Positions 7,812 through 61,218 of a stretch of 64,000 bases of DNA are shown piece after piece. Within the stretch, counting starts at the first letter, position 1. Every line of letters begins with the position of its first letter. The notes beneath the pieces were generated by a model. It was not told the origin of the DNA. It was given only the letters and a program-made list of their open reading frames with translations, and did not search any database. The DNA comes from Eledone cirrhosa. Lineage: Eukaryota. The position numbers were made by a program, and so were the translations under genes. Where the stretch lies: the NCBI GenBank assembly GCA_964016885.1, contig OZ024740.1:218240001-218304000 (forward strand). Reading direction: 5' to 3'.

Positions 7812-9693
7812 CCGTGTTTCCCCGATTATAAGCCATGGCTTATATTAATTTTTACTCCGAAATGTACCACTACGGCTTATTTTCGGGGGAGGGGGTTCAT
7901 ATCCCGAAAACACGACACTACGAAATTGAAAATTACAAATTCGCTAAATGATTGGAAATTACGAAAAAAAACAATCGGCATTTACGCGCAACGTTTACTT
8001 GAAAGATCAAATTTATAAAAAAATTAACACACCCTTTAATTCAACATGAGCGATATAATCCACTAATTTATTCAAAAAAATCATGTCATCCTGCTCTGGA
8101 ATGTCATTGTTTTCCAAATCAGTGGATTCAATGATTCCTGTGAAATTTTCTTGTGACTCAATTAATTGCCTGCAGAATTTTCGTCCTTAGTCTTTCGTGT
8201 TGAGCGATAGAGGTCAAATTGAATGGAGAGTTCTTATCCAGATAGCCTACTCATAGCTATCTGTGATTTTGTTCCATGAATTTCCCACCCAAGTCACGAT
8301 CTCTTGAAGGCTGGGCTTCACGAAATTTCCCCGCTCATTTCTCGCCATTCTGTTTTCGATGTAGTCATTTATTTCCATGCGCAGATGGTCCTTGAATGGT
8401 TTATTCAGTGCGATGTCAAGAGTCTGGAGATAGGCGGTCATTCCTGCGGGAATCATGATTTGATCGATTCTTCTTTCTGCAAGAAAGTTCTTCATATCTT
8501 TGGTGCGGTGCGTGGTGGCTGAATCCCAGACTATGAGACCTCTTTGTGTTACACGCAAAATCAATGGCAGCATGAAATCGACCCACTTCCTTAAAACTGC
8601 CTGTGTGCACCACGCCTTTTCAGTTTCCAGAACACAGATACCTGAAACACGTTCAATTTTATCTTTCTTGCCTTTAGTGATGATAAGAGGTGGAGCTTTG
8701 CTTCCGCCGAGACGAATTGCCAAGATACACGTAACTCGTGCACTTTCGTAATCAGTGGATGGAATGTAAATCGACGACGCACCCCTTTGATCAATTGTAG
8801 ATTGAGAGCTTTGACCCATGAATACTGCTGTTTCATCCATAGCAATCATGTTGGAGAGACGGTAGTTAGAAAAGTCTATCCCATCAACAAAAGACCTAAA
8901 TGCCAGTGCACGTTTAATAATCTCAGTATCGTCCAGTTTGAACAGTGTTGTAGATCTCAGAGAAAATTCGTGTCGCTGCAAGAAATTATCCAGCCAGTGT
9001 TTGGATGCTTTGAATTCTTCTGGAACTATACCAAACTCTAGTGCATTTGTAAGAGCAAATGTTTGTGAATAACCAAAGCTCTGGCTCTTCTTTCATCAAT
9101 CCATTCACAGATGGCGTCTTCCAGCTCAAGAAATATCGGTTGTCGACCAGATCCACGCTTACGCTTCTTTGCATTTCCCTCGTCCATGTCCTGACTGAGT
9201 TTATCGTAGTCCATTCTCCATCTTTGAACCATTCGGAGATCCAGATTCTTTTCTTTGCAGAAAATAGTAAGATTCTTGCCCAGTGATTCCTCCACAATTC
9301 CTTTCTTGTACTCGGCTGTACTTGTCTAGGGCTGAAAATGATCTTCTCCCCTGAAGCTACTGATAAGCCATTACTTCCGGTTTGTACCCGCATTTGCATA
9401 AACAATACTGATTGCACGCACTTCCCCCTTTCCTTTCGTTAATTTCATTATCGATTTTTTCATTTCCGCGCATTCCACAAACTTCTTATACACCCGCTTA
9501 TCAGTTAGTTTACATTAAGATACAATCCTGTTCTATAATGGCTGATAGCGCCAAATTTCATAGCTGGCCATTTGTTTCTTTTGGCGTTCATTTTTGCTAC
9601 GGCTTATTTTCGGGACATGGCTTATATTAAATCCATCCTGAAATATAGTGCTACGACTTATTTTCGGGGGTGGCTTATATGGGGGAAACACGG
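7812..9693 (-). mobile_element. pogo-superfamily DNA transposon (DD35D, Passer-like), 1.88 kb
   Basis: TIRs CCGTGTTTCCCC / GGGGAAACACGG, TA duplication at 7810-7811 and 9694-9695, and repeated subterminal GGCTTAT(T)TTTCGGG motifs. Confidence 0.92.
8247..9311 (-). pseudogene. Disrupted pogo transposase (Brinker-like/CENP-B HTH plus DDE_1)
   Basis: ORFs 9038-9295 (GSGRQP..ELED.ICEWI) and 8247-8981 (MDET, VWDS, QTLD..LNKPFK). There are 35 residues between the 2nd and 3rd Asp. Split across frames. Confidence 0.9.
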
Positions 9694-13033: not shown

Positions 13034-13068
<35 letters not shown>

Positions 13069-13071
<3 letters not shown>

Positions 13072-13244
13072 GGTGTCCCCAAAATGTATACACACGTGAA
13101 CAGCATTCTAATCAAAGTGTGTATACATTTTGGGGGACACACTGTATATATATATATATATATATATATACAGGGTGTCCCCCAAAATGTATATACACGT
13201 GAAGAGCATTCTAATCAAAGTGTGTATACATTTTTGGGGACACA

Positions 13245-13314
<70 letters not shown>

Positions 13315-13579
13315 GGTGTCCCCCAAAATGTATACACACGTGAACAGCATTCTAATCAAAGTGTGTATACATTTTTGGGGACACACTGTATATATATATA
13401 TATATATATACAGGGTGTCCCGCAAAAATGTATACACACGTCAACAGCATTCTATTCAAAGTGTGTATACATTTTTGGGGACACACTGTATATATATATA
13501 TATACAGGGTGCCCCGCAAAAATGTATACACACGTCAATAGCATTCTAATCAAAGTGTGTATACATGTTTGGGGACACA

Positions 13580-13582
<3 letters not shown>
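13069..13582 (+). mobile_element. Array of five 76-78 bp Tc1/mariner-type MITEs separated by (TA)n
   Basis: Units at 13069-13144, 13171-13247, 13312-13388, 13411-13488 and 13505-13582. TIR of about 27 bp (CAGGGTGTCCCCAAAATGTATACACAC), about 22 bp interior, TA flanks. Confidence 0.85.
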
Positions 13583-13636
<54 letters not shown>

Positions 13637-16699: not shown

Positions 16700-17342
16700 G
16701 TATATATATATATATGTATATATATATACGATAACAAGTAATCGTTATAGGTAATCCAGTTAGAGGTTGTGAGTATTCTGCGTCGTGGATAGTTTTGGTC
16801 AGAGGTAAATAATGTAATGGAGATCGAGTGACGCAACCTCGAGCGATTAGCGACCTCTAGACCCACCTGATCAATGAAACAATTGTTACTACCTGAAATA
16901 AAGCCCCTTGTTGTACAGCCAACCATGTTACTCTTCATAACTTTGCTTTCATCCTTACGGTGTCGATAAAATAAAGTACCAGTAATGCACTGGGTAATTG
17001 ATGGCCTTGTGCCTAAAGTAGAAACAATTATTTTACATATGTGTGTGTGTGTGTTTGTTTGTTTGTGGGTGTGTGTGTGTGTGTTCATTTTATTATGGTT
17101 AAATAGCGAGTCTTGTTACTCTGGTATTTCTCCTGTTTATCACAGTGTCATCACACAAGAACATGTGGTAAACAGGCGAACTTCTAGAGTAACCAGTCTC
17201 ACTATTTAGCCTTTATAAAATGAATACCTCAGCCCTCAACTACATTCGGATATATATATATATAGAGAGAGAGAGGGACGAGGCTGAGTAGTTACTAATA
17301 ACGTGTGTTAGAAAAGGGACACGAACAAGAGATAGACATTTT

Positions 17343-17417
17343 CCCTTCATCAGTTGTCTCTTAGGGGTCACAGATGTTTCAGCGCATTATAGATAATACA
17401 TCTATTTGTAGCGCGCC
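17343..17417 (-). ncRNA. Candidate scrambled-order hammerhead-like motif, family 1
   Basis: GGCGCG..AGAUGU-A-UUAUCU-AUAA-UGCGCU-GAA-ACAUCU..AGACAA-CUGAUGA. Confidence 0.55.
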
Positions 17418-17527
17418 CATAACTTATTATCAACAAGTTTTGAGGAAAAGAAAAGACAAAAAAGAGGCGATAACGGAGAGAGAGAAAGAAAAAAAAGTGA
17501 GAGAAAAGGGGGAAACACAGGACAATG

Positions 17528-18725: not shown

Positions 18726-19084
18726 CATACATACACACACAGATATACACTCAGACACACACAGACACACACACACATATATATATATATACACATACAT
18801 ATATATATATATATATATATTTCGTTTCTGAATTTGTTTAGCAAGATTCTTTATCTGAAATCGTGTGTTGAAACCGATATTGTTATACTTTGGGAGGGTC
18901 ATGTTGCCAATAAGAAACACACGCACCAGTTGCTTTCACTTCAATTTATTATATATTCATAATTTACAAACTAATAAATTTCTGGTTGGTTGGTTGGTTC
19001 CACAACCAGATAGTTGTTTATATATAGTCATAGTCCTTTCGTCACACACTCTGTGACCTCTTCAGTGACTGGGGATTCCTTTCT

Positions 19085-19585
19085 TTGTTTAGAAGGGCCC
19101 TAAATAAACATAAACTCAAACTCAATATTAAGATAGTAGAAAGACCAGGTACCTCCGTAAAAACACTTATTAGCAAGACATACCCGTTCCAAAGACCCTC
19201 ATGTATAGATAAGAAATGTATAACCTGCAAAATAAGCCCCCATATTAACTGTAAAACTAGAAATGTAGTGTATAGCATAAGATGTACTGAAGGACAATGT
19301 AGAAACAAAAATATAGTGTACATAGGTGAGACAGCTCGTAGTATAGGGGAACGAATAAATGAACACTGGCGAGGCCTCCAAGATAATAAAGAATCATCTG
19401 TGCTCTACCAACATGCTAAGATAGAACACAGGGGTAGATTAGAGAACATAGAAATAAAAATAGAATCCACACACAGAAAAGATGCAATGTTTAGGCAAAT
19501 TACAGAGGCAGTAAGCATAAAAGAATTACAACCAAAATTAAATAGAAAATATGAGTGGAACAGCAACATCACAACTTACAATTAA
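19085..19585 (+). pseudogene. PLE C-terminal Cys-rich linker plus GIY-YIG endonuclease (5' truncated)
   Basis: CIDKKCITC, VVYSIRC..C..YIGETAR..ERINEH..H, R.ITEAV.I...PKLN motifs. Confidence 0.9.
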
Positions 19586-20120: not shown

Positions 20121-20219
20121 TTAAAGCGATGAAATAACAATGAAGGTTGGAAGATCACTGATGAAGAACTAATTTTATTCATATGTAACCCATGTGCAAC
20201 CACGCAGCACTCCATTTTT

Positions 20220-20294: not shown

Positions 20295-23200
20295 ATAATA
20301 ATAAATTTGAAGACTAAAATCCAAAGAGGGCTCGATAAGGATAAATATATATCAAATATATAAGAACCGTAGAGCAAAACTTTATTAAAATAACAGATTA
20401 AAGTTTAAGCAAAGAATCGCTGCTTTCACCCTTAACGGGATCTTCTGAAACTAACAAAGTCAATCTGTGAACGCAGAAGTGAATATTTCAAAAAACGTTG
20501 CAACCAGAGGAAGACAGGAAGACGATACTTTGGTTCGTGGAAACGTTCCCTGGCAAAGAACGGGAAAAAACGAATATAATACGTCATTATTTGGAGCGGT
20601 GAAAAACAATTACACGCAAAGACAGAACCACGTTTATGGTATAAAAGAAGTCGTAGACTAATATTCTCTTAGGTGGTTCATAGAGACGTTCTCTGGCATT
20701 GAACGGAAAAAACGAAGATAATACGTCATATGTGGAACGTGGAGAACAATTGCACGCAAAGACAAAACCACGTAAATGGTATAACTGAAGTCGTAGACTA
20801 AAATTCTAACTAGGAAACCGAATGATTCTCCGCTTCAGAGTTAAGAATAAAGTAAATAAAATACAGAGGTAATTGAAATTAAATAAATACATACACGCAT
20901 CCAAATACGTACATACACAAGCATACGCGAAAACACTCGCCATAGGTATACAAATACACGCACATATAAATATGTGTGTGCGTACGTGTATACAAATAAT
21001 TAAATAAATGTATATAAATAAATAAATACGTATATAACAAGCGCACACACATACCTACATGTAAATACACAAATGTTCGGAGACGCACGTCAAACAAAAC
21101 ACACACACACCCTACATACGTACGAACCCGCATACTCACACAGACGCAAAACTCACGTATACACATGACCAAAAGCATATGTACCAGAATATATAAAATA
21201 TACGCCATAACATATACAATCAAATATACGTACGAGAAAGTATACGTACCTTCACAAAACATACAGGTAATATATACTTACCTATGCATATAAGTAATGG
21301 TATAAACATAGCATATACTTAGCTACCACATCAAGACGTAAAATATCCGCGTATAGATTGTACTATCCGTTAGGGTATAATGTGGGGCTGTAATACAGGA
21401 AAGTTTTGTGCAATTTATGTTTACAAGCCGAAATTGCCTCAGATTTTTTGTTTAAGATGTGGTCTGTGGCGTAGAGTATTTCCAGGGCCCCAGTGGCGCA
21501 GAGGTCACATGGTCTTTTATTTCCGTTATACGATCTATCCCTAGCTAGGATCTCCCAGTGTAACTTATATTGGGTGTGGTTGTCTTTTAGACTCCAGATA
21601 TAAGCTGAAAGTGACGTCATATTCCTTCTTAGAGGGTAACGAAAAGAATGGGTATGCATGTAAAGACGCTGCTTGAATCTATTGGCGGTTAACCCTATGT
21701 AGGCCCTACGGGACGTGGGTGTTTCAACCTTACATTTGTAGACAATGTTACTAGAGAGGCATTTCCCGGATAGGGGGGCAATCAATCCGATTCCTATAAT
21801 TACAGTTAGAACTAATTACAGGGTTGCACGTGTTCCTACGTCTAGGTAGTTTAGCTAAATTTGAAGCTGTGCTGTTATGTGCAAGGTTAGGAGTCGTAGG
21901 GTAAGAAATTTTAATAGTATTTCTATTAAAAATGTTACTATATTTATGTGTAGGGGGAAAATGCTTCGTAATAAGGGATAGAAAGATCTTAACTAATGGT
22001 GTGGCCACCTCCATATTATATGGTGGGTTATACCATATAATGCGTTGGGATCTATTTCTTCTAGGTCTATTCTCGTACTCTGTATATGCTACCTTATCAA
22101 CAAATCCACTCCGAGAAAGTGCTTCATTGTAATATGTAGAATGGTCGTTGAAAATAAGCTCGTTAGTAGATAGACGGGAAAGCCTCAAAGAAACGTTTCT
22201 TACGAGGTTCTTGGTTATGCTGGCAGGATGGTTGGAATGCTTACTTATGTAATTAAGCGTATCATTCGGCTTTCTATACGGGTAATACAACCCATTCGAT
22301 AAATTGGGGGTAACGTCGAGGTAATTAACGACCGAGAGGTTGGCCTCAACCTGTATAGAGAGGTTGAAGCCTTTAAAGATGGCTGTGAGTTCTTTTCTGA
22401 ACCTGTCGCAAGCACGAGGGCCGCACTTAGTCATGGTCAAAAGACTATCATCACGGTACAAACCACCGCCCACGTTGGGGAATTCGTCCTTGATAGAGAA
22501 AAGAAGGAAAAGGCCGATAAGATCAGTAACCTCCGCAGAATCGCTGGCGCCCATACTCACATCGAATGGGGTACTATTAGATTTTTTAATCCAAATAGAG
22601 TCGTCGAAATTAATCACCGACTTACGGGCATTGAGGATGACATCGACTTCGAAATTCTTAACCACTGTGAGTGTTTTAGCGAAATTGATAGCTCTAAGGA
22701 GAAGTGATGGAGGAGTAGTAATTATTGAGGGGCCAAACTTCTAATTTCAGGTATAATTCTATCAAGAATCCTTTTACTAAGTCTGCCTAAATCGGACTTC
22801 GTAGGGTTAATAAGCCGAATAGAGGGGTTGTTCGGAAAATTGGATTTGTGATCCTTCAGGGTAAAGTGGGGAGAAATAGGGTCCAGAGGTTCGGTCCGGT
22901 CCAGGATGTTGAGATCAGAGGTGATTTTAAACCCAGCATCGTTGATTTCATTGATGACGCACCGATTAGTTTTACGGTAATCCTTAGTTACAGCATTATG
23001 TAGTAGTTGATGGTAAGTACTGCGGTCCACTTGATATAGGTTGCCAGTTTTGTCGGAATGGACGTGCATGGCATTAGAATCCTTAATAGAACGAATTCTA
23101 TTCTTCAGGTCTTACTGGAAGGAATTGCTCCTATTCCGAAATTTGATACTCCGTATGAGTTCAAAGACATTATTTTGGAAGGGTAGCTATGTTGGGTTGC

Positions 23201-23423: not shown

Positions 23424-23659
23424 TTCCAAAAATAAATGTTATGGTATTTATATATTTTCAGGTGGTAGAAGAGGGTGGGGAGTTGGATGGGTGGAGGTCA
23501 TTGGTTGAAAGAAAAGGGAATTCATTAAAGGCTAATTCTTTAAGGCTATAATTTATATTTAGAGTGACAAAGGCAGAAAGAATTCTATAAACAAGTTCAG
23601 AATGGGGTGCCACTCCTTATTTTTAAGTTTCTCTTAAGCTAACAATGGCTATATTTCAG

Positions 23660-25155
23660 GTGTCCCTGGAGCAGAATATCTGAGGCAATATCCTGGTTCC
23701 AAGAATTACCCGACAAACGCTTCCTGCAACTCGACATAGAAAACTACTATGCTTCTATCTCGGAGCCCCTCCTGAAGGACGCAATTACCTTTGCCAGGAA
23801 TTTTACCACCATAAGCGATGCTGAGCAAGATGTTATCCTCCATGCCCGTAAGACCTTCCTATACCACGATGGATCTTACTGGCTAAACAAGAAGTCTCAG
23901 ACCCCATTTGACGTCAGCATGGGAGCGAGTGACTCGGCTGAAATTAGCGACCTTGTGGGCCTGTACATTTTACATCACCTGAAGAACCTCTTTACTAGCC
24001 TAACCGGAGGTTTATACCGAGACGACGGCCTCTTCGCCCTGCACAAGGTTAACCCCAGAACCACCGATGGGTTTCGGAGAAACTTAAGCTCGTTCTTCCG
24101 TAATCTAGGATTTAGTATAACTATAGAATCTAACATGACCAGGGCCAACTTTTTAGATGTCACTCTCGACCTGGATACTTCCTTCTATTACCCGTACCAC
24201 AAACCTAATGAGTCCCTTAGATATATTAATGTTAATTCTAACCACCCCAAAAACATCACTGATAACTTAGTAAAAAGCGTCTCTATTAGAATCTCTGGCC
24301 TCTCTGCCAATGAAAATATTTTTAACGCTTCTGCCTCCTACTACAATGACGCCCTCGCCCACAGCGGATTTAAAGAAAAGATAACCTACCTAGAAACCAC
24401 CGCAAGACTGCATAGGAGGAATAGGCATGGGCCGATTAGCTGGTACAACCCTCCCTTCAATAGAGAGGTCTCTACACCTATAGCTAGGATTTTCTTCACT
24501 TTGCTGAACACACACTTCCCCATACAACATAGGTACTACACCATCTTTAATAAGAACACAATAAGACTCTCCTACTCCACCACACCTAACCTAGCTAGGA
24601 ATATAGCCAATCACAATTCTAAAAAATTAAATAAGCCAACCACCTCCGAACCCAATCCCCGGACTGGAGCTTTGTGTAATTGCCTAAATAAGGAAGCCTG
24701 CCCACTTGATAACAAATGCCTGACAAATGATATCGTATACAAATGCGATGTCATCTCAGGCACCGATGATTGCAGCAACAAAAAACTTACATCGGCATGA
24801 CTTCCAATAACTTTAAGACCCGCTCCTTCAGAAGACCGGACAAATCAAACCAGACAACACTCGCCTCCTATGTTTGGGACCTCAAAAGGAACTCCACCCC
24901 CTTCACGCTTAAATGGAAAATACTCCAGAAGCGCGCTCATACAACGGAGGACACAAGTGCTGCGACCTCTGTATCTCAGAGAGCTACGAAATGTTATTCG
25001 CCAAGGGCCCGCTACTGAACAAACTCTCTGAACACTGCCCGAACTGCATGCACAAAAACTTTGCAACTTTCAAATACCTTAAGCCAGTGTTAAGGCCCGA
25101 TGGCAAAAAACGATGCCCCCCCCCCTTTTTTTTTAAACGCCTGCCGACAAAATAG
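23660..25155 (+). pseudogene. 5'-truncated PLE ORF (RT plus GIY-YIG, Hydra-clade-like), frameshifted near the C-terminus
   Basis: LQLDIENYYASI, MGASDSAE, LYRDD, NFLDVT, WYNPPF, CNCLNKEAC, IVYKC, YIGMT, CDLC. Confidence 0.9.
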
Positions 25156-27782: not shown

Positions 27783-29790
27783 AGTAGTAGAAATTTAATT
27801 TAGGGGTAGAGGAATGAAGACTTAAGTTTTGAATTACTTTGAATGGAAAGAATACTTTGGGGGAGAAAAGAGGTCAAGCCGGTGAAAGGTACACGAAAAT
27901 TTGATGTTATTAAAGAATAATGCTAATGTTAAAACCGAGGGAGAATAAAATGTTAAGGTGTTAGTGAGAAATACCAATCTTATTTAAAACACAAGGAATT
28001 TAGATCTATAACAAGAAATTAAATTGATTGATAGGTATACTTATAGGGATAAATTTATATTAATTCATCTGGATGTGATAAATAAGAATTAGATGTTATT
28101 AAAGAATGTTGTTAAAAACGAAGGAAAATAAAATTTGGGGATAAATGTATTAGTGAGAAATACCAATCTTATATAGACTACAACGAGTCTAGATTCATAA
28201 CAGGAAATTAAAATAGTTTATATGTATACTTTTAGGTATTAATTTTAAGAAAAGAGAGCTGTAAGAGGGAAATAAAATTATGAAGTTCTCTGCAGTAAAG
28301 TACTAATTATAGGTTAACTAAATTAAAAAAAAATAATTATAATAATATGTAAAATATAAGTGTAAGGTGTATATTAATTAGGTTTATAATATTTGAAAGT
28401 TTTTCTAATTCTATGATTGCAAGATATAATTAATTCTTATCGCTTATTTAATAGGATATCCTTAGATTTCATTATTTCAAAAAGTTCCTGGGAGCATAAT
28501 CTACACTCATATCTGTTATTTTGATAAGGAGGGAAGGCCCTTTTGAGCACACTCCAGGTCAGGTTGTAATTGATATTCTCTTTTTCTATAATTATTAATT
28601 GTTTCAGCCAAGGATGTTGTATTAGCTAATGCGGCATTTTAAAAACTATGTTTGTGGCTATTAAATCTTACTTTAAATTGGTTAGAAGTAGCTCCTATAT
28701 ATGAATAAGTTGAGTCCTTAGTGCTAATTTTACATTTATATACTATGTTATTAATAAGACAATTTCCCTTTAATGGGCAATTTCTTTTGTTTCTACAGTT
28801 ACAACCATTCGTGAATATTATATCAGGGGAGATAGTCAAATTTGGTGTGGAATTTACTCGACTTGTTATATGTGAAGGAGATGGTGGTTTGTTGCGGTTT
28901 ATTTTAGTATTATGGTTGGTTTGATGTGTTGGTGGAATATTCGTGGTTTTTTTACATTCATATGCATAGTAGGCACTTATATTTTGTTGTATATTTTTGG
29001 TAGTGGAGTAGGAAAATTTGACAGTTGATGTATTTAAAATTTGATGGTATTTATGGTTTGGCGGGAAGTTTTTCTCTAGGATAGTAAAACATTTTTAGGG
29101 ATATTATCTTTAATTTGTAGATTAAAAGGAGCATTATACCAAGTAACTCGTCTATTACGGTTTCGTTGTTGTTTTTTTATATGTATACGATGTATCAGGA
29201 TGTTTACTAAGAGAGTTGGTATTAGTGAATTTATTATATATAAGTTTAGTTAGATTAACTGATTTAGGTGTTTTTTATATTTATACGATGTATCAGGATG
29301 TTTACTAAGAGAGTTAGTATTAAAATTAATACCTAAAATTATACATATAAACTATTTTAATTTCCTGTTATGAATCTAGACTCGTTGTAGTCTATATAAG
29401 ATTGGTATTTCTCACTAATACATTTATCCCCAAATTTTATTTTCCTTCGTTTTTAACATTCTTTAATAACATCTAATTCTTATTTATCACATCCAGATGA
29501 ATTAATATAAATTTATCCCTATAAGTATACCTATCAATCAATTTAATTTCTTGTTATAGATCTAAATTCCTTGTGTTTTAAATAAGATTGGTATTTCTCA
29601 CTAACACCTTAGCATTTTATTCTCCCTCGGTTTTAACATTAGCATTATTCTTTAATAACATCAAATTTTCGTGTACCTTTCACCGGCTTGACTTCTTTTC
29701 ATCCCCAAAGTATTCTTTTCATTCAAAGTATTCTTTCCATTCAAAACTTAAGTCTGCATTCCCCTACCCCTAAATTAAATTTCTACTACT
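27783..29790 (-). mobile_element. 5'-truncated Hydra-like PLE flanked by inverted repeats of about 460 bp
   Basis: ORF 28639-28839 (CNCRNKRNCPL.G.CL..NIVYKC..YIGAT..FK.R) and WYNAPF near 29140. Arms at about 27783-28246 and 29317-29790. Confidence 0.85.
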
Positions 29791-43380: not shown

Positions 43381-43487
43381 ACACACACATATATATATAT
43401 ATATAGTGTGTGCAAGTGCTATAAATTAATGTTTTGTCTCTCGTCTCTTACTCCAATGTACCGCGTTTGGCTTGTATCAGACGGTGT

Positions 43488-43557
43488 GACCCCGGGTGGA
43501 TCAGCAGTACCATTGGTAGGGGTCGAAACAGTTAACGTCCATCTCAACAGCCGATGA
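43488..43557 (+). ncRNA. Candidate scrambled-order hammerhead-like motif, family 2 (degenerate)
   Basis: GACCCC-GGGUGGA-UC-AGCAGU-A-CCAUUG-GUA-GGGGUC-GAA-ACAGUU-AACG-UCCAUCU-CAACAG-CCGAUGA. Confidence 0.5.
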
Positions 43558-43702
43558 ACCTGGAGTTCTGTGTCCTTATTTGTATTTTTATTAGAAAAAA
43601 AAACGTTTAAGGTTTCCCCTTAAACAATTGTTTTTCGTTTTGCCTTGTTTCCGTTCGCTGTCTTGTCCTCTGTAAATTTTCTTAAGTTTATATATATATA
43701 TA

Positions 43703-45149: not shown

Positions 45150-47851
45150 TACTTGGGGAGGGTCATATTTGTGTAATAATATTGCCAGAATTAATAATAG
45201 AACACTCTCACTGTTTGGTTGATTTTCGCTTCTGTGTCTTTTATATCGGTTAATTTAATTTATTCGGTCCACAATGTTGCCGTTGACTGACCAACGGTCA
45301 AAAATACAGATACAATATAAACACAAACACATATATATAGTCTATCAAAGTTCTTTCGTTGCACATCTGCAACATCGTCAGTGGTGCTATTATGTTTCCT
45401 CCCGTTGCATTGTATGCTTACGCCATGTTTATTTAGTCTGTTTATTTATTTATTTATTTATTTGTTTTTGTTTTTTTTTTGTCTTCTCTGCGCATGCGTT
45501 TGCGTCTGTGTATAGTGTTTTGTTTGATGTGTGTTCTTGTTTGGGTGACTGTGTATTGGTTAATGTATTCTATCTTAGTTTACTAGTGTGTGTTTATATG
45601 TGTTTGTTGTTATTGTGCTTGTGTATGTATCTATTTATTTATTTATTTATTTATTTATACTTCTCTTAGGTCAGTGCTGTTTGTTTTGGTGTTGTTGTTA
45701 TTCCATTCATTTTCTGTTTAGCCTTGGCCTTCTAAGTTCTATTTCGCTGGCCTCTCTGATTTGCCTATCTGCTGGGTCATTTCTATGTTTAGATATTATT
45801 CTAACTTCTATGTTGTCTATGTTACCGTTGTGTTGTTGTCTGACATGTTCGTATAGTACTGAACCGTTTTTTCGTCCTTTTAGTTCCCCCCAGTGTTGGT
45901 CTATCCTTTCACCTATGCTACAAGCTGTCTCGCCTATGTTATGTTGTTGTCATGTTTCTGCATGTACCCTCTGTACATCTTATGCTATAGACTACGTTTC
46001 TAGTTTTACAGTTTATCTGGGGGGTTTACCTTACATATGATACATTTCCTATTAGTACAGTGGGTTTTCTTAAAAGGGTAGGTTTGCTGATCAGGGATTT
46101 TATGGTGGTTCCTGGCTTTTCTACCACCTTAATTTTTAAGTGGGTCTTTCTCAGGGCCTCTCTACACTGGTTAGTTAATTTCCCTCCAGGGGTAGCGTCC
46201 CCAAAAATGTCATTTTGGTATCTCTGGTTGTCGTACCATGAGGTGACTTTCCCTATCTTATGTCTAGTCCTATCTAAGCTATTCCATGATTTGCTCCTGT
46301 ATAATGGGCAAATTCCTTTCATGTCCAGTTCTATGAGGGTCTTATATTTCTCCGTGGCTCCTTCGTATACTCTGATTCTGTCTCTTTTGTTGTAGCCAGA
46401 GAACTGCATGCGGTTGATGAAGTGTTGGATGTGTCTTTCCATTTCTGTTGGGTCGCACATGCGGGACACGTTCTTCATCACTCGTACCAAGTCTGCGATC
46501 AGAATATTAAACTTAGCACTACTGGATATTGCTGAGTTTTTGAGTATCAGGTATTTGGAGGCCATGGGTTTAGCATAGTGTGAGTGGAGAATTTGGGCTC
46601 TCTCGTCTATAGTGTTAATCCAGAGTTCCGTGTCTAATACAGGTAGTCTATTGTTAGGTTGTTTGGAAGGGTAGTCGATAGTCACAGTTATACTCTGGTG
46701 TATGGAATTAGCTATCTGCTGGATGCTTTCCATTGTGCTACGTTCTAAATCACACTTGTTAGTGCTCTCTTGTGGGGATGTCCTTATTACCATATTGTTG
46801 TCGTCTACGTAACGAGAGTACATGATGAGGTCTATGGAGCTCTCATCAAGGAGATCTTTTAGTCTCCTTTCCCACCATACCATAAAAAGGTTGGCAACGT
46901 CACCAGCTATGCTGACGCCAATGGCTGCTCCCTCATTTTGCGTGTAGATCTTCTCTTGAACTTGAATATGTGGCCCTTTAGGGTAGTTTTGATCCTAGCG
47001 CCTATTGCATCTGCGACCATTTTTCTTACCTGATCATTGTTTTGGGGGGTCCGTATAGCTTTGGTCCACCCAATCCACCTTCCCATGGGAGTCTTTTTTG
47101 CCATTGAGGTTATGGTGAGGGGTCTACCTCTTATGGGTCTACTAGGGCAGAAACGTCTAAGGTCATGGCTGTCTAGGTAGTCAGTGTCGTAGGTAAGTCT
47201 ATGTAGGAGGCCCAGTTAGTCTGTGTTGACGTCTCAGAACTCCACCTCACTCTCAATGATCATCTCCACACATTTTTCCACAGCAAAATCAATGTTAATG
47301 GATGGGTACAGTGACACCACATCCATGCTGCCTATTATGCAGTTGGATAGGTTCCTGTTTTTGTTGCACTCACTGACTCTGCTGAGGAGGTCCTCTGTAC
47401 TGTCACATACATCTGGGGACATCTTGACTATGGGGCGTATAACCACCGAGAGGAAGTAGGAGATCCTGTAGTTGCTAGCTATATTTGCTCCGCATACAGG
47501 TCTTGTTGGTGGTCCTGTTGTCGGGTCGTCGACTGTCTTGTGGTATTTGCGGAGCCCATACAATGAAACGGGAGGAAGCATACAAGCACCACTGACGATG
47601 TTGCAGATGTGCAACGAAAGAACTTTGATAGACTATATATATATGTGTTTGTGTCTATATTGTATCTGTATTTTTGACCGTTGGTCAGTCAATGGCAACA
47701 TTGAGGACCGAATAAATTAAATTAACCGATATAAAACACACAGAAGCGAAAACCAACCAAACAGTGAGTGTGTTCTCTCCAAGTATAACAATATTTGTTT
47801 CAACACACGATTTCATATCAAAAACCTCGCAAAACTAATTCATCGCCGTTA
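45145..47851 (-). mobile_element. 5'-truncated PLE (RT plus GIY-YIG) with inverted pLTR; relative of 18821-20096
   Basis: ORFs 47234-47614 (YGLRK.HK..P.RPV, SMDVVSLYPSI) and 46026-46883 (RYVDD, LPVLD), with GIY-YIG remnants at 45700-46050. About 47557-47775 is the reverse complement of about 45200-45415. Confidence 0.92.
47587..47631 (+). ncRNA. Minimal hammerhead in the pLTR (mirror copy at about 45342-45386)
   Basis: CUGACGA-U-GUUGCA/UGCAAC-GAAA-GAAC-UU. Stem I is weak. Confidence 0.65.
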
Positions 47852-48730: not shown

Positions 48731-49752
48731 AAGCATTGTGTAATGAGGTATAAACGTTAGAATATGTGTAATAAGGCCAAGACAATGCAGGTATGGACAT
48801 AGAAAAAAGAATGCAATAGTGAAAGATATTGATGTGAATTCGTCTTTCACCTTGAATTTATTTAAATGTCCTTAATTTTCGAGATAATATCTCTTCTTCG
48901 GAGGGAAGTAAAGGTCTCAAACCAGCGTCTTTAAATCTCTAATGAAGCCATGCTGACCGGAAATAGTATAGAGTATCTGTTCTAACTTTAATATCAAAGA
49001 ATTAAAATTAGGTGGATAAAGAGTAGTCTCCCTTTAAGAGGGGTTTGTTTATGATTTGTTTTTGTTTTTGTTTTTTTTTTTTTTAATTTTATATGCGTGC
49101 CTGTATATGTGTGTTGGAGAATGCATGAAGGTGTAGGTATGTGGGTGTGTGGGTGTGAGTGTGGGAAGATAGGTCTAATCGTAAAAGTGGGGGGTAGGTG
49201 TTATCTGGTGTTAGAACTGGTTTTGTGTGTGTATGTGTGAGAGAGAATAAGTGGAGGTGTGCGCGTGCGTGTGTGTGGGGTGTGTAAAAATGGGGCTAGA
49301 GGCTCTATCAGGTTATAAATTGGGTGTTGAGCTCTAGTCTATTATTGATTGGTGGATGTGTTCTATCTATAATAAGTGCTTCCTTAATTCTAAGATTGCC
49401 GAGGTTTCTTTCCTTAGTTTCTATCCTAACTGTTATGTTTTTATCGGTGTTTTTGCATTTAACTAGGTGTTTCTTAAATGAGGAAGCGTTAGTATTGAGG
49501 TGTTCTTTTATTCTTATGTGGAGTGGTCTGGTGGTGCTACCTACGTAGAAGTTGTTGCATTTGTCACACTCTAGTCTGTATACTACGTAAGCCTGGTGGC
49601 ATAAGTCTGTGTCGTTGATGGGGCAGTTGGCTAGTCTGCAGCAGTTGTCAAGTCTGGTGGAGTGTCTCTTAGCCAGCCGTCCGCGCAAAGAAGGACCCGA
49701 GTGGGCCAGTTGAATATCCAGACCCTCTCGTCTGATGGCTCTGCGGATGGCG
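48728..49752 (-). mobile_element. PLE 3' fragment with GIY-YIG ORF (49308-49688) and a degenerate hammerhead (about 48868-48908)
   Basis: VVYRLECDKC..FYVGSTTR.LHIRIKEH..IKEAL.I....P.IN. Ribozyme motif CCGAAGA-A-GAGAU/AUCUC-GAAA-AU-UA. Confidence 0.88.
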
Positions 49753-49943
49753 TAAAAGGAAAAGAAAATGCTGACAAATTTTTCCAGTGAAAAATAGTTT
49801 AATTAGGAATAAGTATAAATTAGTAATAAATATTGGTTCGTATTCAGTTTTAGTTTTAAGTTTTTACCGGTTGCGCATTTCTAATGCTTTTCAAAAATAA
49901 TTTTGAGATAGGGCGCCCGTGATGTTTGCTCTAATCTGTTTGC

Positions 49944-50687: not shown

Positions 50688-50760
50688 TATATATATATAT
50701 ATATATGAAAAAATGGCGTGCTGCGTGGTTGCAAATGGGTTACATATGAATAAAATTAGT

Positions 50761-50834
50761 CCTTCATCAGTGATCTTCCAGCCTGCAATGGTATTTCATC
50801 GCTTTAAAGATCATATACCTCTGCTTGGTGCGAG
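50761..50834 (-). ncRNA. Candidate scrambled-order hammerhead-like motif, family 3
   Basis: CUCGC-A-CCAAGCAG-A-GGUAU-A-UGAUCUU-UAAA-GCGA-U-GAA-AUACC-A-UUGC..UGG-AAGAUCA-CUGAUGA. Confidence 0.6.
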
Positions 50835-51324
50835 CAACGGCTATAGAATGTCGTTGGGACACGTAAATAGGGGGAACGAGCGAGACAATAAACAAACAAA
50901 CAAAGATGATAATGCAACGAAAAGTGAGGAAGAAGGAGTCAAGTCCCTGAAATCGATGAACATAAGTTCTGTGAAATCGTAGACGAGAGAAAAAAGAACA
51001 TCCAACCTGGTTGAAATATGAGCGAGGAAAGGATTTCGCACAGGTCAAACGGGAGGAAGTGATGGAGGGGGAGTAGCAGAGAGTGAGTGAGTGAAAGTGT
51101 GAGGAAGAGGCTAACTGAGAGAATGACTGGCAGAGGGGTAAAAAGAAAGTGAGAGATACAGAGAAAAGGAAAGCAGTAAGAGAGAAACAGACGGGCTACA
51201 GCGGAGGAAAATATATAAATATATGAAAAAATGGCGTGCTGCGTGGTTGCAAATGGGTTACATATGAATAAAATTTATATATATATATACATATGAATAA
51301 AAATAGACCGAGAAACAAGATTGT

Positions 51325-51398
51325 CCGTCATCAGTAGCCTGCTGATTTTCATTGGTATTTCTTCGTATTAAAGACTAGATACCTAAAATCAGTGCGAA
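51325..51398 (-). ncRNA. Candidate scrambled-order hammerhead-like motif, family 4 (second copy at 51863-51936)
   Basis: UUCGCA-CUGAUUUU-A-GGUAU-C-UAGUCU-UUAA-U(A/G)CGAA-GAA-AUACC-AAUG-AAAAUCAG-C-AG(G/A)CUA-CUGAUGA. Confidence 0.6.
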
Positions 51399-52014
51399 CG
51401 ATAGCTAAATTACGTTATCGGGACAGAGGAAAACAGAGGAAAGGAAACAAACAACATGGTAGTAATGCAACGTAAAGAGAGGAAAAGAGAGACAAGTCAA
51501 TGAATCTTGTGGGCTTAAGTCCGACAAATCAAATGACGAGAAGAAACAGACGCGTCCGAGCCATGAGAAAAGTGAGAAAGGAAAGAATATTTCACGCAGG
51601 TCAGACGGGAGGAAGTGAGAAGGAGGAGTAGCAGAGAGTGAGTGAGTGAAAGTGTGAGGAAGAGGCCAGCCGAGAGTGTGCGACCAGCAGCGGGGGTGAA
51701 AGAAAGCAGGAGGTAAAGCAGAGAGAAAGAGGATAGCAGTAAGGTCACAGAAAAAAATACGAACCACAGCAAAGGGAAAACATATACGTGAATGAAAAAT
51801 GGCGTGCTGCATTGTTGCGAATATGAACATATGAATAAAAATAGACCGAGAAACAAGAATGTCCGTCATCAGTAGTCTGCTGATTCTCATCGGTATTCCT
51901 TCGCATTAAAGACTAGATACCTAAAATCAGTGCGAGCGATAACTAAATTAAGTTATTGGGATAGAGGAAAACAGAGGAAAGGAAACAAATAACATGGTAG
52001 TAATGCAACATATA

Positions 52015-55615: not shown

Positions 55616-58600
55616 CTACAGGCTGATATAGAGAGAAGGCCCATTCACTCGGGCCATTCTCGCTACTTTCACCCATCTTTCATAAAACTTGCTGGGGTAG
55701 AGCACCTCTCTCTCCATTCTGATCCTTCTTCTAAAGTGGTACTTGAAAAAAAAGACCAGTTGTTGGCCGGAGAGAAAGGTGTCTGACCTCAGCCCTTTCA
55801 ACCTTGTCCACCATACAACTTCTTTCGCCATGGCTATCACACAGAGGAAATCCGCCTCTCCTTCGTTTTTGAAAGGGGGGGGGGGGCGGTTTGATTGTGA
55901 CAATGGTCTCGGTGGTCAACCGGATTGGTCCCACCCGCGACAGTAGTCGTTCTACATAGCCCCACAGGTCAGCAACGTCCGGGCAGTGTACGAATGCGTG
56001 TGCGACGGTTTCCTCGTCACGCACGCATCTTGGACAGATCTTCTTCGAGGGGTCCCTACCCGGGAGCCCGTGTCTGTAGAGCTTGTCCCGAACGGGTAGA
56101 GCTCCTCGGTAACATTGCCAAGCCAGGGACTTTTGGAAGTTGTCCATCGGTCCCGGGCCAAACGTCCTACCGAACAGACTGGCCAGCTCGTCTTCCTCCA
56201 TGCCCAGAGCCTCTCCGAGAGCGTCGTCGCACTTACTGCGCACCAACCCTCTATAGAATGTTGAGGTTGAGTCTCCACTGATTGCCGGATCCGCTTGCCA
56301 GAGGGCCGTGAGCGCCTGAGCACATTCAATGTGCCAGTCGCCCACTTTTCTCGGTCTTTGCTTGACCCAGGATTGCAGCTCGGTGAATGAGACGAGTCTC
56401 GGAAAGGCTCGCCTCACAAACAGGGCCCACACCGGCTGACCGGTGAGGAATACCTGGAGGTGCCGTAACCTTAATGCGTGTCTACGCATCGTCAGCCACG
56501 GCATCCTCAGGCCTCCGTTCGAAGGGTGTTGACAGCAGATGGTTCTTCACACCAAAGGAGCCTGCTTCTTCCAAAGAAATCGGAAGAGCGCGCGCTCCAT
56601 TTTGGCGAGGGTTTTCTCTGGGCAAGGCACGACGGTCAAGCGGTAGTAGATGACGGACGCTATATAAGCGTTCACCACCTCCGCTCGACCTTTCAGGGAT
56701 AGTTTACACTCGGCCCACTTCTGGGCGAGTGCAAACACCTTGCCCGTTACATCGTCCCAGTTTTTCTCCACCTGGAGGTCCGGTCCGAACCAGACTCCGA
56801 GCAGCTTCACCGGTCCCTCCGTCCAGCGTCCGACGATGCCGTCGGAGGGCATCGTTTTGCCCCTCCACGTCCCGAGTTGCAAACTGACGGACTTGTCCCG
56901 GTTCAGCTTGGCTCCTGTGAACCTTTCATATTCCTCCAGTAAGGTGCCGATCTGCCCGATTTCCGAGGCGCACGACACCATTACTGTCACGTCATCGGCG
57001 TAGGCCGACACCGCTTTCCGCAATCCCGGTTCCAAGGGGATGCCCTGCAACAGCTCTAGCTTCCGCAGTAGTGGCTCGAGAGCCAGCACATACAGGACGG
57101 AGGAGAGAGGGCATCCCTGTCGAATGGATCGCGTGATTTGGAACGGCTCCGAGAGGTAGCCGTTCACCTTGACCCTCGAGCAGGTGTTGCTGCTGTGCAT
57201 TGCAGCAATCCAGCCCCTGAAAACGGGTCCGAAGCCTGCCGCCGCGAGCACCGCATCCAGGTACCGATGGTCAACCCTATCGAACGCTTTAGATTGATCC
57301 AAGTTGATCAGGGCCCCACCAAAGCCGGGTTCGTTCCCTACCCTCTCTACGATGTATCACATGAGGTGGAGGTTGTCGTGTATGGACCTGGACGGGATTG
57401 CGCATGTCTGCGCTTCTCCCACCAGGTTCCCGACGACAAGCGCCAACCTCTTCGTTAACACCTTGGCCAAAATCTTTAACTCTGTGTTTAGCAGAGTTAT
57501 GGGCCTGAAGTTATTTATGTCATCCTCCTTGTTCTCGTCCTTCCTCACCAGCGTGACTACGCCCTTGGTCACAGAACTGGGAATTCTCCCGTTCTGTTGC
57601 CAGTTGCAGTAGACCGCCTCGAGGAGACCGGAGAACAAGCCCGGCATCGCTACATAAAGTTCGTATGGTACCATCGAGACCCGGAGATTTGCGTTTGCCG
57701 CATTGGCTCAGCGCTTCCCCTATTTCAGCGGCTGAAATCGGCCTCTCGCAGGACTTCGCTTCCCCGTCCGAGAGCCGCGCCAGACCGTCGAGGTATGGAG
57801 CGAAATCCATGGCCCCACCCGGCCCGCCGCCCCTCCCGAACAGTCGTGCAAAGCGCCGTTGAAAAGCCGCGCTCATCCGCTCAGGTTCAAGGATCACGCG
57901 TCCATCCTGGTCTTTCAAAGACCGAATCGTGGACTTGTTTCCACTTTTTGCCTCTGTCACTCGGGCCCAGCTAACAGCTTTGGCTCCCTCGTTACCCAGA
58001 GCACGTATTTTACTTTACTCCTGACAACGCAGCCCTCGTGCTTCGCATCAAAGAACTGGTCTAGGGCCGTTCTTGACGCCAGCACGCCGGCCACGTTTCC
58101 ACTCCTAATCGCCTCTTCTACTCTATTTGTTAATTCCCTTTCAGTTCTATTCCTATCTGATGCTAATTCCCGACTAAAACCTATCGATTCTATTCTAATT
58201 TCTCTCTTGAGAGAGCCCCGCCACCTGTTGTTGACGCCAGCACGCCGGCCACGTTGCCACTCCTAATCGCCTCTTCTACTCTATTTGTTAATTCCCTTTC
58301 AGTTCTATTCCTATCTGATGCTAATTCCCGACTAAAACCTATCGATTCTATTCTAATTTCTCTCTTGAGAGAGCCCCGCCACCTGTTGTTGACAATTTCC
58401 CCCGTCAAACGCTGCTTAACTAGTGTGCTAATCCGCTTACTGTAAGCTTTGTTTGTCGGTAAAGACAAGTTTAGCTTCCAGTAACCGGGTCCCTGTCTAT
58501 GAGTTCTATCAAGGTTGACCACTCCGGTCACCAACTTGTGATCCGAATAGTCAACCATGAACATTCGTGGACAGCTTAATATGTCCCTATCCTTATTTCT

Positions 58601-59218
58601 AACTGGGAACCTATCTAGGTACGACCTAGATCTTCCGCTGCGATTACTCCACGTCCACCGTGGCACAGTCGGAAAATCTAGTCGATATCTATCGGCCAGA
58701 TCAAATCGGCCGATTAATCGTTTGAGGCTGTTACACCCCCCTCTATCGGGACATGCCCCTACATAGTCCCAACGTGCATCCAGGATACCATTCCACTCCC
58801 CCACTAAAAGCAAGGAGCAAGACGTTCCCAGGAAATTCTCCAGGCGTCGGAAGAAGTCCGGTCGCGGTGTCCCAGATGGGGCATACGCTGCCACCAGCCT
58901 GAAAGCTCCACCTTCACCACTGCCGACGTCTAAAACCACCAGTCGACCCTCCGGGTCCAGGTGTACCTTCTGTGTGGCAAGACCCAGGTATTTTCGCAGC
59001 AGAACGACAACCCCACCCCCACCCCTCGGCTGACAGAGAGATGCGTAGATCTCAAAGTCGTCGAAGATGGGGGCCAGTTGGCGCTCGCTGCTGATCCTGG
59101 ACTCGCAAATAACCATTACATCCACTCTGTGCGACCTGAGGTCATTTAAGAGTTTGCCCTGTTTCCAGGACATCCCCAAGCCGCGTGCATTCACACATCC
59201 AACTCTTATATTGGCCAT
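55616..59218 (-). pseudogene. Tx1 ORF2: APE endonuclease, reverse transcriptase and C-terminal CCHC; frameshifted
   Basis: NARGL, SYLDR, SDHK; KSPGLDG, NFRPITLLN, DQSKAFDRV, RQGCPLS, YADDV; CPRC...ETVAHAFVHC. Confidence 0.92.
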
Positions 59219-59260
59219 GTTGGTGCTGAAGAGGTAAAAAGGAAGAGGAAAGGAAATTAC

Positions 59261-61030
59261 TTACCTCTTCGTCTCCTGGGGACCAGGCTGCACAATTTCC
59301 ATGGGGGTGTTGGAAGGGTTGTTTGGTGGGGTGGTGGTTTGTGGTGGGGTGAGGACATCAGTGTGTGGTGGGATTAGGGTGTTTGGTGGGGTGTGGGTGT
59401 CTGGTGTGGGGGTGGGGAAACATCTCAATAGGACGCTGTTATGTGGTTTGGTGCAGTTGGTCCCCACATGCATTGGATGGTTCTTTTTCAAAGTTACATA
59501 GGTTTCCGTTGGGACCCTAATCATCATTAGGTGCGGTTTGTTCGCTGCGTAGGTGAAAGTGATCCCTTCGGTTTCCACCGAAGGGTTATTTTCTATCGCT
59601 TTCATCAACGTTTTATTGTTCTTGTTAATGTATGTATAGAGTTTTTGTTGTGTTGTGTTTGTTTTTGTTTGTTGTTCTTGTGCGTGTTTGCGTTTTGTAG
59701 TGCGTGTTATGTTTTGGGGAGGGGTGGGTTTTTTATTTGTGATGTTTGTTCTGTTTGTGCTGGTGGTTGTGTGTTTGTGGCATTTTTGTTAATGTGGTGC
59801 CTTTTTTTTCCTTTTCACCTGTTGAAAGGGTTCTCCCTCGTCGTCACTGGGTGACGTTGATACGGAGTCCTCTTCCGTGTTGTTGGGGAGGGGTATATTT
59901 TGGGGTTTTGTTGTGGTTGCTTTTGTATTTGTTTTAGGTGGGGAGGGGTTGGGTGGAACAGTGTTTTGTGTTGTTATTTTTCCGTGTTGTTGTGGTGGTG
60001 GTGGTGGTTGTGTTGTTGTGTTCGGGGTTGGCAGAAGAGCCTTTTTTTTTTTACTCGTTAATTGAGGACAGGCAGCCCTCAGGTGATCCCTGCTTAAGCA
60101 GTGGTAACATGACGGCAGCCTTCCCTCCACTGAAATGTTTATATAAGTTAGCCCGTCCAGAGTCACGCGTTGTGGGATATTCGCTATTCGTTCTGGGCTC
60201 ATTTGCACCAGAACTTCTACGGTGGTCCCACCAAATACACCTCCGGAGGACTTTCCTATTGAAATTATCTTGTCTTCGTCAAAGTTAATTATTCCACATA
60301 GTATCCACCAAATGTTTACATTTGGTGTGATACTCATTATTTTTATTCTTTGTGTTCTTTTTCCCCTGTATGTGGGGTAAAAGGTGAAGCGGGGGGACAC
60401 AATGGGTGCTACCGAGTACTTTTGAGCTGTTGACTGGTTGTTCATCAGCACCGAAATGCTACCAAACAGTTTACCTTTTTGTATGAAGGTTAAGTCCTTC
60501 ATTGCATCTTTTAGAACCAACTCAATTTCATTTTGTGATAATTGAGCTGGTTTTCTTGTTTCGTTCGATATTGTCCTGAAAACCAAAGTTTTCAGGACAG
60601 CCTCTCTGCGTAATTCCTGTGGAGAATTGATGCTAAAAGCACCGTTTTCGCCAAAAGTCACGAATTGTTTTGCGTCTTGTAATAGTTGTTTAGCATTTGT
60701 TATGTCTATTGGCGTGTATAGTTCGTTTTTTTTTACGGTCTGTGCGAATGTTGTTTTGGTGTTGTTGTCTTTTTTGTTACTGTCACTGTTGGTAATATTG
60801 GTGTTGCTATTGTTGCAGTTGTTGGTTGTGGTGTTATTGTCATTGTTCTTGTTGGTGTTGGTATTATTTACCGGGTTTGGTTTCGTGGTTTCGATATTTT
60901 TCACGTTTTTCGATGATGCGAGGGGGGAAGGCTGCAAGCTTTGTACTCCTACCTTCCCTCCACCACTTTTCTTAGTGGGCGTGGCACTCACGACAGTGTT
61001 CGAGGTGGAAATGGCATCCATTGCCACCAA
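59261..61030 (-). pseudogene. Tx1 ORF1 gag-like protein with zinc knuckle, interrupted near 59789
   Basis: 413-aa ORF with CYHCLSRDHLRAAC (CX2CX4HX4C). The continuation at 59261-59608 ends just before ORF2. Confidence 0.8.
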
Positions 61031-61218
61031 GTCTACAGTTTTTAGATGAAAATTGAAAAATTCCGCCCCAGAAAGGGGCGAAAATTAGTTGACTCAACGT
61101 CTGACGGCCCAGGCAAGGGGTTAAACTAAACAATGTTATTAAATTGAGCAATAAACTCACAGTTTTTGTGACAACAATCCGTAAAAATCCGGAGCAAAGT
61201 AAATCACGTCTATATCAA

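Follow-up and report, generated by a model that had tools for sequence, protein, structure and literature searches.

Can a hammerhead core be built when its conserved blocks follow one another in an order that no circular permutation provides, and would one copy of the RNA suffice to build it? The question is raised by a repeated motif in a window of 64,000 nucleotides of Eledone cirrhosa (GCA_964016885.1, contig OZ024740.1, positions 218,240,001 to 218,304,000), the whole stretch of DNA analysed here. The six loci named in a preliminary description, together with the block order proposed there (A-P-B(U)H-C-linker-A'-GAAA-B'-P'-C'-CUGAUGA), were all found in place; they comprise five full copies and one truncated copy, drawn from four high-copy repeat families (F51325, F50761, F17343 and F43488). 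The predicted cleavage nucleotide H17 likewise agrees at 50814, 51378 and 17397 (minus strand) and 43509 (plus strand), a further H17 being present at 51916 (minus strand). The length of about 75 nt had been set too low: the motif spans about 102-116 nt once helix T'/T and the hairpin H lying upstream are counted. The copies and their parts are as follows.

51322..51425, minus strand: full F51325 motif, 33/35 helix positions paired, core intact
51421..51425, minus strand: leader strand T' (51425-51421), pairing with the tail directly after CUGAUGA (51326-51322)
51399..51420, minus strand: hairpin H (51420-51399), between T' and the stem II 5' strand A
51397-51393 and 51392-51387, minus strand: A and P, the remaining 5' parts of this F51325 motif
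51383-51379, 51378, 51377-51372, 51367-51363 and 51361-51358, minus strand: B, H17, C, A' and GAAA, its middle
51347-51342, 51340-51335, 51334-51328 and 51326-51322, minus strand: P', C', CUGAUGA and T, its 3' parts
51348..51386, minus strand: stem III/P internal loop, made of strands 51386-51384 and 51353-51348, with a predicted k-turn-like fold
51860..51963, minus strand: second full F51325 motif, H17 at 51916, private change of GAAA to GGAA
50759..50860, minus strand: full F50761 motif, core intact, H17 at 50814
17340..17449, minus strand: full F17343 motif with H17 at 17397 and a P helix that has decayed here
43450..43565, plus strand: full F43488 motif with H17 at 43509; U4C as in the family majority; partial decay of stem I and T here
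20121..20169, plus strand: 5'-truncated F50761 copy with A', GAAA, P', C' and CUGAUGA only, between TA runs
50699..52009 (ends approximate), minus strand: non-coding three-unit head-to-tail array, flanked by (TA)n

The half copy noticed earlier at 20121-20165 is indeed a 5'-truncated copy lacking the cleavage site. Two copies had been described as core mutants, and here the picture divides: the GGAA at 51863 is private to a copy whose family has GAAA, and that copy is probably inactive, whereas the CCGAUGA at 43488 is the family state, position 4 being C in 23/30 copies of F43488. The U4C change is a natural hammerhead variant with reduced in vitro activity (PMC3088659). Decay of single copies is also seen at 17343, where 2/6 pairs of the P helix remain although the helix is perfect in the family majority. 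A strict descriptor (unbroken stem III of at least 4 bp, stem I of at least 4 bp and at least 4 Watson-Crick pairs with the 5' strand of stem II) matches the window twice, at 50770 and 51334, against a mean of 0.01 and a maximum of 1 match over 100 dinucleotide shuffles made block by block; point mutations keep the remaining three full copies from matching, and 94 matches were obtained on 120 fetched family loci (378 kb). The array at 50699..52009 consists of two F51325 units and one F50761 unit, with motif spacings of 538 and 564 nt. One tandem array thus mixes units of two families, and locus L006 carries a variant whose stem I shows a compensatory change; this suggests template switching between related RNAs.

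The helical architecture was read from family majorities, which strip private mutations from the copies. The full order is T'-H-A-P-B(UH)-C-linker-A'-GAAA-B'-P'-C'-CUGAUGA-T, with two helices that the earlier account lacks: the leader-tail helix T'/T (5/5, 7/7, 6/6 and 4/4 positions paired in the four majorities) and hairpin H (7/7, 8/8, 10/10 and 6/7). Stem III pairs at 5/5 and stem I at 6/6 or 7/7 positions in all four majorities, while stem II is formed by the upstream strand A with A' over 4-6 bp. Helix P (6/6, 6/6, 7/7 and 5/6) joins the distal ends of stems I and II in every majority, and the linkers between these two stems measure 4, 4, 3 and 4 nt. Over six helices and four majorities, 143/145 positions are paired (136 of them Watson-Crick), a value that leans high because the helix ends were picked on the same majorities and that rests on n=4 families, two of them related; when strands are swapped between families, only 218/402 positions pair, which bears out the covariation previously claimed. 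At the level of single sequences, 13 real copies (12 distinct) from three families were scored over five helices, with helix H omitted and F43488 left out, here and in the RNA model R1, because MAFFT misregistered it. In these 12 distinct copies 94.8% of 324 cells are paired, with kinship remaining in the shuffle control, 13/27 pairs are altered on both sides, and slid registers reach 29-50%. Model R1, built from the same three families (13 copies, no helix H), gives the truncated copy at 20121 a score of 32.3 bits; it failed on the held-out 43488 copy and does not generalise beyond its three families.

The core letters C3-U4-G5-A6-N7-G8-A9 and G12-A13-A14-A15.1 are present in 27-30/30 copies per position in all families, except for the U4C of F43488. 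The N-U16.1-H17 triplets of the four families (AUC, GUA, GUA and AUA) lie between stems III and I, both of which abut the core, so that a hammerhead core with these two stems in register, as proposed before, is supported by core letters and majority stems alike. The 10.1/11.1 position, usually a G-C pair in hammerheads, is mismatched or a wobble in 3/4 majorities. Conservation within families is nearly flat (core 0.95-1.00 versus surroundings 0.90-0.99), which fits decaying copies and is evidence neither way. Single-strand folding of five copies gave z values from -1.56 to +1.40 by a method that is blind to a double pseudoknot. Helices T, H, P and III are mutually nested, and a fold of these four has A, C', C and A' unpaired; in ViennaRNA, with the two pseudoknots unscored, other nested folds come out 5-25 kcal/mol better than T, H, P and III alone, and the pair probabilities of P or III are low in some copies.

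The block order itself places the motif outside the circular permutations I-III, as had been stated, since the blocks run S-G-C (cleavage site, GAAA, CUGAUGA). It had also been expected that standard descriptors would miss the motif, and no Rfam match reached the gathering score at four loci, one per family; of 517 weak matches in the Rfam scan of the window, the 150 listed were all microsatellite-driven miRNA or snoRNA models. The order had further been thought undescribed, yet S-G-C corresponds to type SGC of Eckert et al. 2023 (PMC10085705), a non-circular hammerhead permutation for which cleavage at the predicted site was shown. SGC-1 and SGC-2 were almost fully cleaved during transcription, SGC and CSG constructs cleaved at 0.004-0.19 per min with all four stems required, and SGC was reported from metatranscriptomes only, with none in genomes of known organisms (PMC10085705). 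The likeness to type SGC (HRIMA-1 and variants) extends to the 3-4 nt linker between stems I and II, to the helix linking their distal ends (termed 'I' there, P/P' here) and to the two pseudoknots.

What differs is the position of the strands around CUGAUGA. In type SGC the 5' strand of stem II and the 'I' strand follow CUGAUGA, whereas in the window form both stand at the 5' end, CUGAUGA runs into helix T, and hairpin H is added. The earlier caveat that the 5' strand of stem II is not contiguous with CUGAUGA holds in all four majorities, where the longest pairing of the tail with A' amounts to 0, 2, 0 and 1 bp, and the strand directly after A9 is thus not stem II. A canonical SGC reading, with the tail paired to A', is ruled out by the same 0-2 bp. 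Moving the P strand and the 5' strand of stem II to the 5' end breaks block C (CUGANGA with the strand on each side of it) between A9 and 10.1; Eckert et al. assumed this block inseparable, which leaves six possible permutations (PMC10085705), and it is uninterrupted in the 30 SGC alignment rows compared. Type CSG, known to Eckert et al. from two metagenomic sequences (PMC10085705), shares the cyclic connectivity of the window form but keeps block C whole, while the window form opens inside it. We infer that a single pseudoknotted ring, opened at three different places, underlies SGC, CSG and the window form. Judged from its sequence, the window form would be a hammerhead-like RNA outside all six named permutations, failing one SGC-defining feature; relative to the text of Eckert et al., the split block C, a k-turn-like loop and the occurrence of the layout at the ends of Naiad elements are new. 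In the literature covered, with few subscription papers among it, no split block C, no non-circular hammerhead in an animal genome and no Naiad ribozyme structure was found. Weinberg 2015 reportedly describes hammerhead variants 'with additional helices', as relayed by a citing paper; these lie outside the comparison.

Naiads are described by Craig et al. 2021 as Penelope-like elements (PLEs) without canonical hammerheads; 'HHR_core' and 'HHR_half_core' were flagged there without a structure, and the absence of hammerheads served as an argument that these ribozymes could be mere parasites of PLEs (PMC8557442). Inspection by eye of the supplement to that paper shows the six-helix layout, T and H included, at the ends of at least 10/54 Naiad consensus records: Naiad_Obim, _Ovul, _Amil, _Aacu, _Anas, -3_Chem, -2_Movir, _Plae, _EuTe and _Bfor, from two octopus, three Acropora, Clytia, Morbakka, Pomphorhynchus, Eulimnadia and Beroe, which represent seven distinct sequences in five phyla. 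The count is a lower bound, based on 58/62 CTGATGA matches, on six matches for every one of five alternative core spellings and on the ends of about 35 records, text matches that span line ends being missed. T and H were defined on the window families first and the Naiad layout was recognised afterwards. In these records the motif lies on the sense strand, 3' of the ORF. In Ovul, Amil, Plae, EuTe, Chem-3 and Movir-2, respectively, stem II pairs at 6/6, 6/6, 6/6, 6/6, 4/4 and 5/5 positions and helix T at 5/6, 6/6, 5/5, 5/5, 8/8 and 5/5; the helix sequences are unrelated across these Naiads yet still pair, and no pairing of the tail with A' was seen by eye in any of the six. Naiad_Bfor (Beroe) has a stem I of only 2 bp. 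The rod formed by P and stem III also varies, with no more than a 1-nt bulge in the 15-bp rod of Naiad_EuTe (1x0), 0x3 in _Plae and 5x0 in -2_Movir, the lengths of P and III changing independently across Naiads by eye.

The split form is not universal, and other Naiads in the supplement carry other 3' motifs. Six 3' passages of nematode Naiads, three from Nippostrongylus records and three not assigned to a record, look by eye like complete type CSG hammerheads whose P helix is long. Another conserved 3' motif is found in Naiad_CGi, _Sglo, _Olur, _Tgra, _Pmar, Naiad-1/2_Chem and one hemichordate record, and this bivalve, Clytia and hemichordate motif may possibly be another self-cleaving RNA. 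Naiad_Ptep and the Darwinula Naiads have a CUGANGA whose tail pairs to a strand upstream of stem I, Naiad_Ptep showing S-G-C order with a weak stem II. The 3' end of Naiad-1_Movir appears to resemble a twister ribozyme.

The window families resemble Naiads in having the layout at the 3' end before (TA)n, in (TA)n insertion, and in tandem and inverted truncated copies; they differ in that Naiads encode an N-terminal GIY-YIG and RT ORF, whereas the window elements are short and non-coding, and no sequence link from them to a Naiad ORF was found in this genome. First-look candidate counts in the 3.0-Gb genome, which serve as the copy numbers, are 1447, 614, 1565 and 2479 per motif type (40 scored per search, 30 fetched per family), so that candidates in the genome, belonging to an animal retroelement, number in the hundreds to thousands, against the metatranscriptomic occurrence of SGC. 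Among the 120 fetched loci, 26 have a tandem copy (spacing mostly 410-560 nt), 26 an inverted copy, and 96 a (TA)n within 150 nt 3' of the motif, compared with 601/2400 control windows. Short non-coding units, tandem or inverted copies and (TA)n ends together make a Penelope-like pattern, and by these sequence traits the window copies appear to behave as non-autonomous, retrozyme-like passengers of Penelope-like elements. Minimal type I PLE hammerheads and non-LTR retrozymes are likewise tandem, non-autonomous and PLE-tied (PMC4209133; bioRxiv 10.64898/2026.07.22.740005); both groups are circular-permutation type I with a stem III of 1-2 bp, as against 5 bp in the window, and in them one additional base is known to occur between 9 and 10.1, the text consulted mentioning no multi-helix junction. 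In the available part of the 2026 preprint, Naiads appear only as a clade (bioRxiv 10.64898/2026.07.22.740005).

Searches for a protein-coding partner gave the following results. Two Naiad-like RT stretches had no match in the 120 family loci of about 3.1 kb, and PLE ORF fragments near these loci are scattered, with no fixed position. A Naiad-type RT pattern retrieved five decayed remnants from the genome; by eye these look like octopus Naiads, none is followed downstream by an intact motif, and in one of them the majority of 30 copies of the 3' end shows no CUGANGA. The exact octopus-Naiad motif pattern gave 0 matches in the genome, and motif and RT pattern searches found no autonomous Naiad with an intact motif. 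The decayed remnants fit the description of cephalopod Naiads as remnants (PMC8557442), and the link between window families and Naiads is one of shared architecture and target, not of sequence homology. Hammerhead cores of the ordinary type I or minimal PLE kind are present in the window as well, in many cases forming inverted pairs (4 recognised by descriptor, the rest by eye), along with other mobile-element pieces:

48490 (+)/48346 (-), 54433 (+)/53701 (-), 53179 (+), 31196 (+): type I or minimal PLE cores
40046 (+)/40039 (-), 23413 (-), 19892 (+)/19065 (-), 47592 (+)/45381 (-), 40586 (-): further type I or minimal PLE cores
19034-19585, 21363-23111, 23643-24800, 28639-29094, 46026-47632, 49308-49802: ORF fragments of PLE RT with C-terminal GIY-YIG, by eye from translations
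55731-61084, minus strand: broken LINE-like element with endonuclease and RT ORF pieces, by eye
8247-9092, minus strand: DDE-transposase-like fragment of 281 aa, by eye
13043-13604: MITE-like tandem palindromic units of 94-141 nt with TA runs between them

We put a probability of roughly 55% on the reading that the motif is a single-copy hammerhead, folding and cleaving itself, at the 3' ends of Naiad-type PLEs and of short passengers. The catalytic nucleotides, the six helices (T, H, II, P, III and I) and their order are read directly from the sequence. In the proposed fold, an ordinary core would be built from stems I, II and III, of which two would be pseudoknots, like those of type SGC; the opening of the chain would lie between A9 and 10.1, and a four-way junction of core, T, H and stem II would close the break, T stacking on H while stem II remains stacked at the G12-A9 side of the core. 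The spacing between T' and H is 0 nt in 3/4 families and A' runs into G12, which would make this stacked-X arrangement of T on H and core on stem II available. Stems I and II would be tied together at their distal ends by helix P; a k-turn would fold the rod of P and stem III back so that one molecule closes. Hammerhead chemistry proceeds by attack of the 2'-OH 3' of H17, giving a 2',3'-cyclic phosphate and a 5'-OH. Multimeric or read-through transcripts would be cut to unit-length RNA of about 410-560 nt; the ends of the cut monomer would still be held together by about 20 bp in T, II, P and III, favouring circularisation, and the paired ends may help to template more-than-unit-length reverse transcription by the Naiad RT/endonuclease into (TA)n. 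For PLE hammerheads and retrozymes, cutting and circularising the precursor RNA is the proposed role (PMC4209133; bioRxiv 10.64898/2026.07.22.740005). Catalysis would find support by analogy in the SGC and CSG RNAs, which share the 3' geometry and cleave (PMC10085705).

Where the rod would have to bend, three window families and both octopus Naiads have a 3x6-nt internal loop, the size being 3x5 nt in F43488. Read as a k-turn, with stem III taken as its C helix, the letters comprise a 3-nt bulge ending in U followed by GA, with NGA on the opposite strand in F50761 and the two octopus Naiads and NUA, Kt-23-like, in F51325 and F17343. By hand, 14 layers against 9 at 50 degrees, with a helix rise of 2.8 A, leave the helix ends roughly 30 A apart from axis to axis, a gap that is tight and would possibly be closable once strand offsets are counted. 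Judged by the k-turn consensus of PMC5061560 and PMC2790904, the F50761 loop fits the standard form, F51325 and F17343 have U at 2n, and F43488 lacks the consensus, as do the non-cephalopod Naiads. Standard k-turns have an included angle of 50 degrees (PMC5061560); Kt-23 folds with U at 2n in a context-dependent manner, and the 3b-3n context found here is not the permissive one (PMC2790904). The bridges made by T and H together with the k-turn-like loop make a monomer fold plausible and an obligate dimer unnecessary, while the weak 10.1/11.1 position, the competing nested folds, the missing k-turn consensus of F43488 and the negative outcome of the genome searches for an autonomous Naiad with an intact motif count against the single-copy fold.

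The main rival to the monomer builds the same core out of two copies: the stem III loop of one unit, supplying the cleavage site, C, A' and GAAA, would dock into the T-H-A-P-C'-CUGAUGA multiloop of a second unit, and only tandem or pLTR-flanked transcripts would be cut. Such a dimer had been put forward as the easiest assembly, a preference that the data do not support: SGC cleaves while being transcribed, T and H bridge locally, and the rod has a 3x6 loop. The idea survives because straight-rod Naiads exist and because the consulted part of Eckert et al. contains no concentration dependence. P and III are nearly continuous in Naiad_EuTe, _Plae and -2_Movir, and the 15-bp EuTe rod would be hard to close as a monomer; moreover, A, C', C and A' stay available to a partner in the nested fold of T, H, P and III, tandem arrays are frequent (26/120 loci), minimal PLE hammerheads are proposed to act as dimers (PMC4209133), and Eckert et al. 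regard a direct link of the I helix to stem III as not obviously compatible with the crystal structure (PMC10085705). Against this stand the k-turn-like loop exactly at the monomer bend in 3/4 window families and both octopus Naiads, a stem III of 5 bp rather than the dimer-forcing 1-2 bp of minimal PLE hammerheads (PMC4209133), and the near-complete cleavage that SGC-1 and SGC-2 underwent during transcription (PMC10085705). We consider two-copy assembly unlikely, though it deserves serious weight.

Distinctly less probable is a regulated or protein-assisted ribozyme, in which the observed helices would be a resting state, cutting would need a protein (an L7Ae-family k-turn binder or a Naiad protein being the candidates) or refolding, and naked RNA would be nearly inactive. 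Box C/D-type k-turns fold only upon protein binding (PMC5061560) and PLE hammerheads are weakly active in vitro (PMC4209133), to which the weak 10.1/11.1 pair, the U4C of one family and the competing nested folds may be added; impaired k-turns, however, can be stabilised by tertiary contacts alone (PMC5061560), and SGC and CSG RNAs cleave without protein (PMC10085705). Least probable of all, and hardly to be expected, is a hammerhead-derived structured 3' recognition signal for the Naiad RT/endonuclease that has lost cutting, a reading suggested by the broken block C that Eckert et al. assumed impossible (PMC10085705) and by a core barely above its surroundings within families (0.95-1.00 versus 0.90-0.99), as in neutral decay, but opposed by the turnover of helices across families and phyla while CUGANGA, GAAA and NUH are kept in exact register, since a binding signal would not require catalytic G8, G12 or the scissile triplet.

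With the self-cleaving single-copy hammerhead as the preferred reading, a broader proposal carries, in our estimate, somewhat better than even odds. The motif would represent a seventh topology among natural hammerheads, with the catalytic strand interrupted between A9 and 10.1, a four-way junction restoring closure and, in cephalopods, a k-turn folding the molecule; it would be the missing ribozyme of many Naiads from ctenophores to molluscs, nematode Naiads having type CSG; non-circular hammerheads would therefore be abundant in animal genomes, and monomers would self-circularise via four helices. Exact predicted cut sites and short natural constructs make the role of self-cleavage in PLEs, and the choice between monomer and dimer, directly testable. 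If the proposal is true, free ends at a fourth helix and a k-turn that proteins can bind would offer a new scaffold for RNA switches, and the three-block rule limiting hammerheads to six permutations would be broken. Non-circular permutations would then be present in animal genomes at high copy number, and the claim that Naiads proliferate without hammerheads (PMC8557442) would be overturned.
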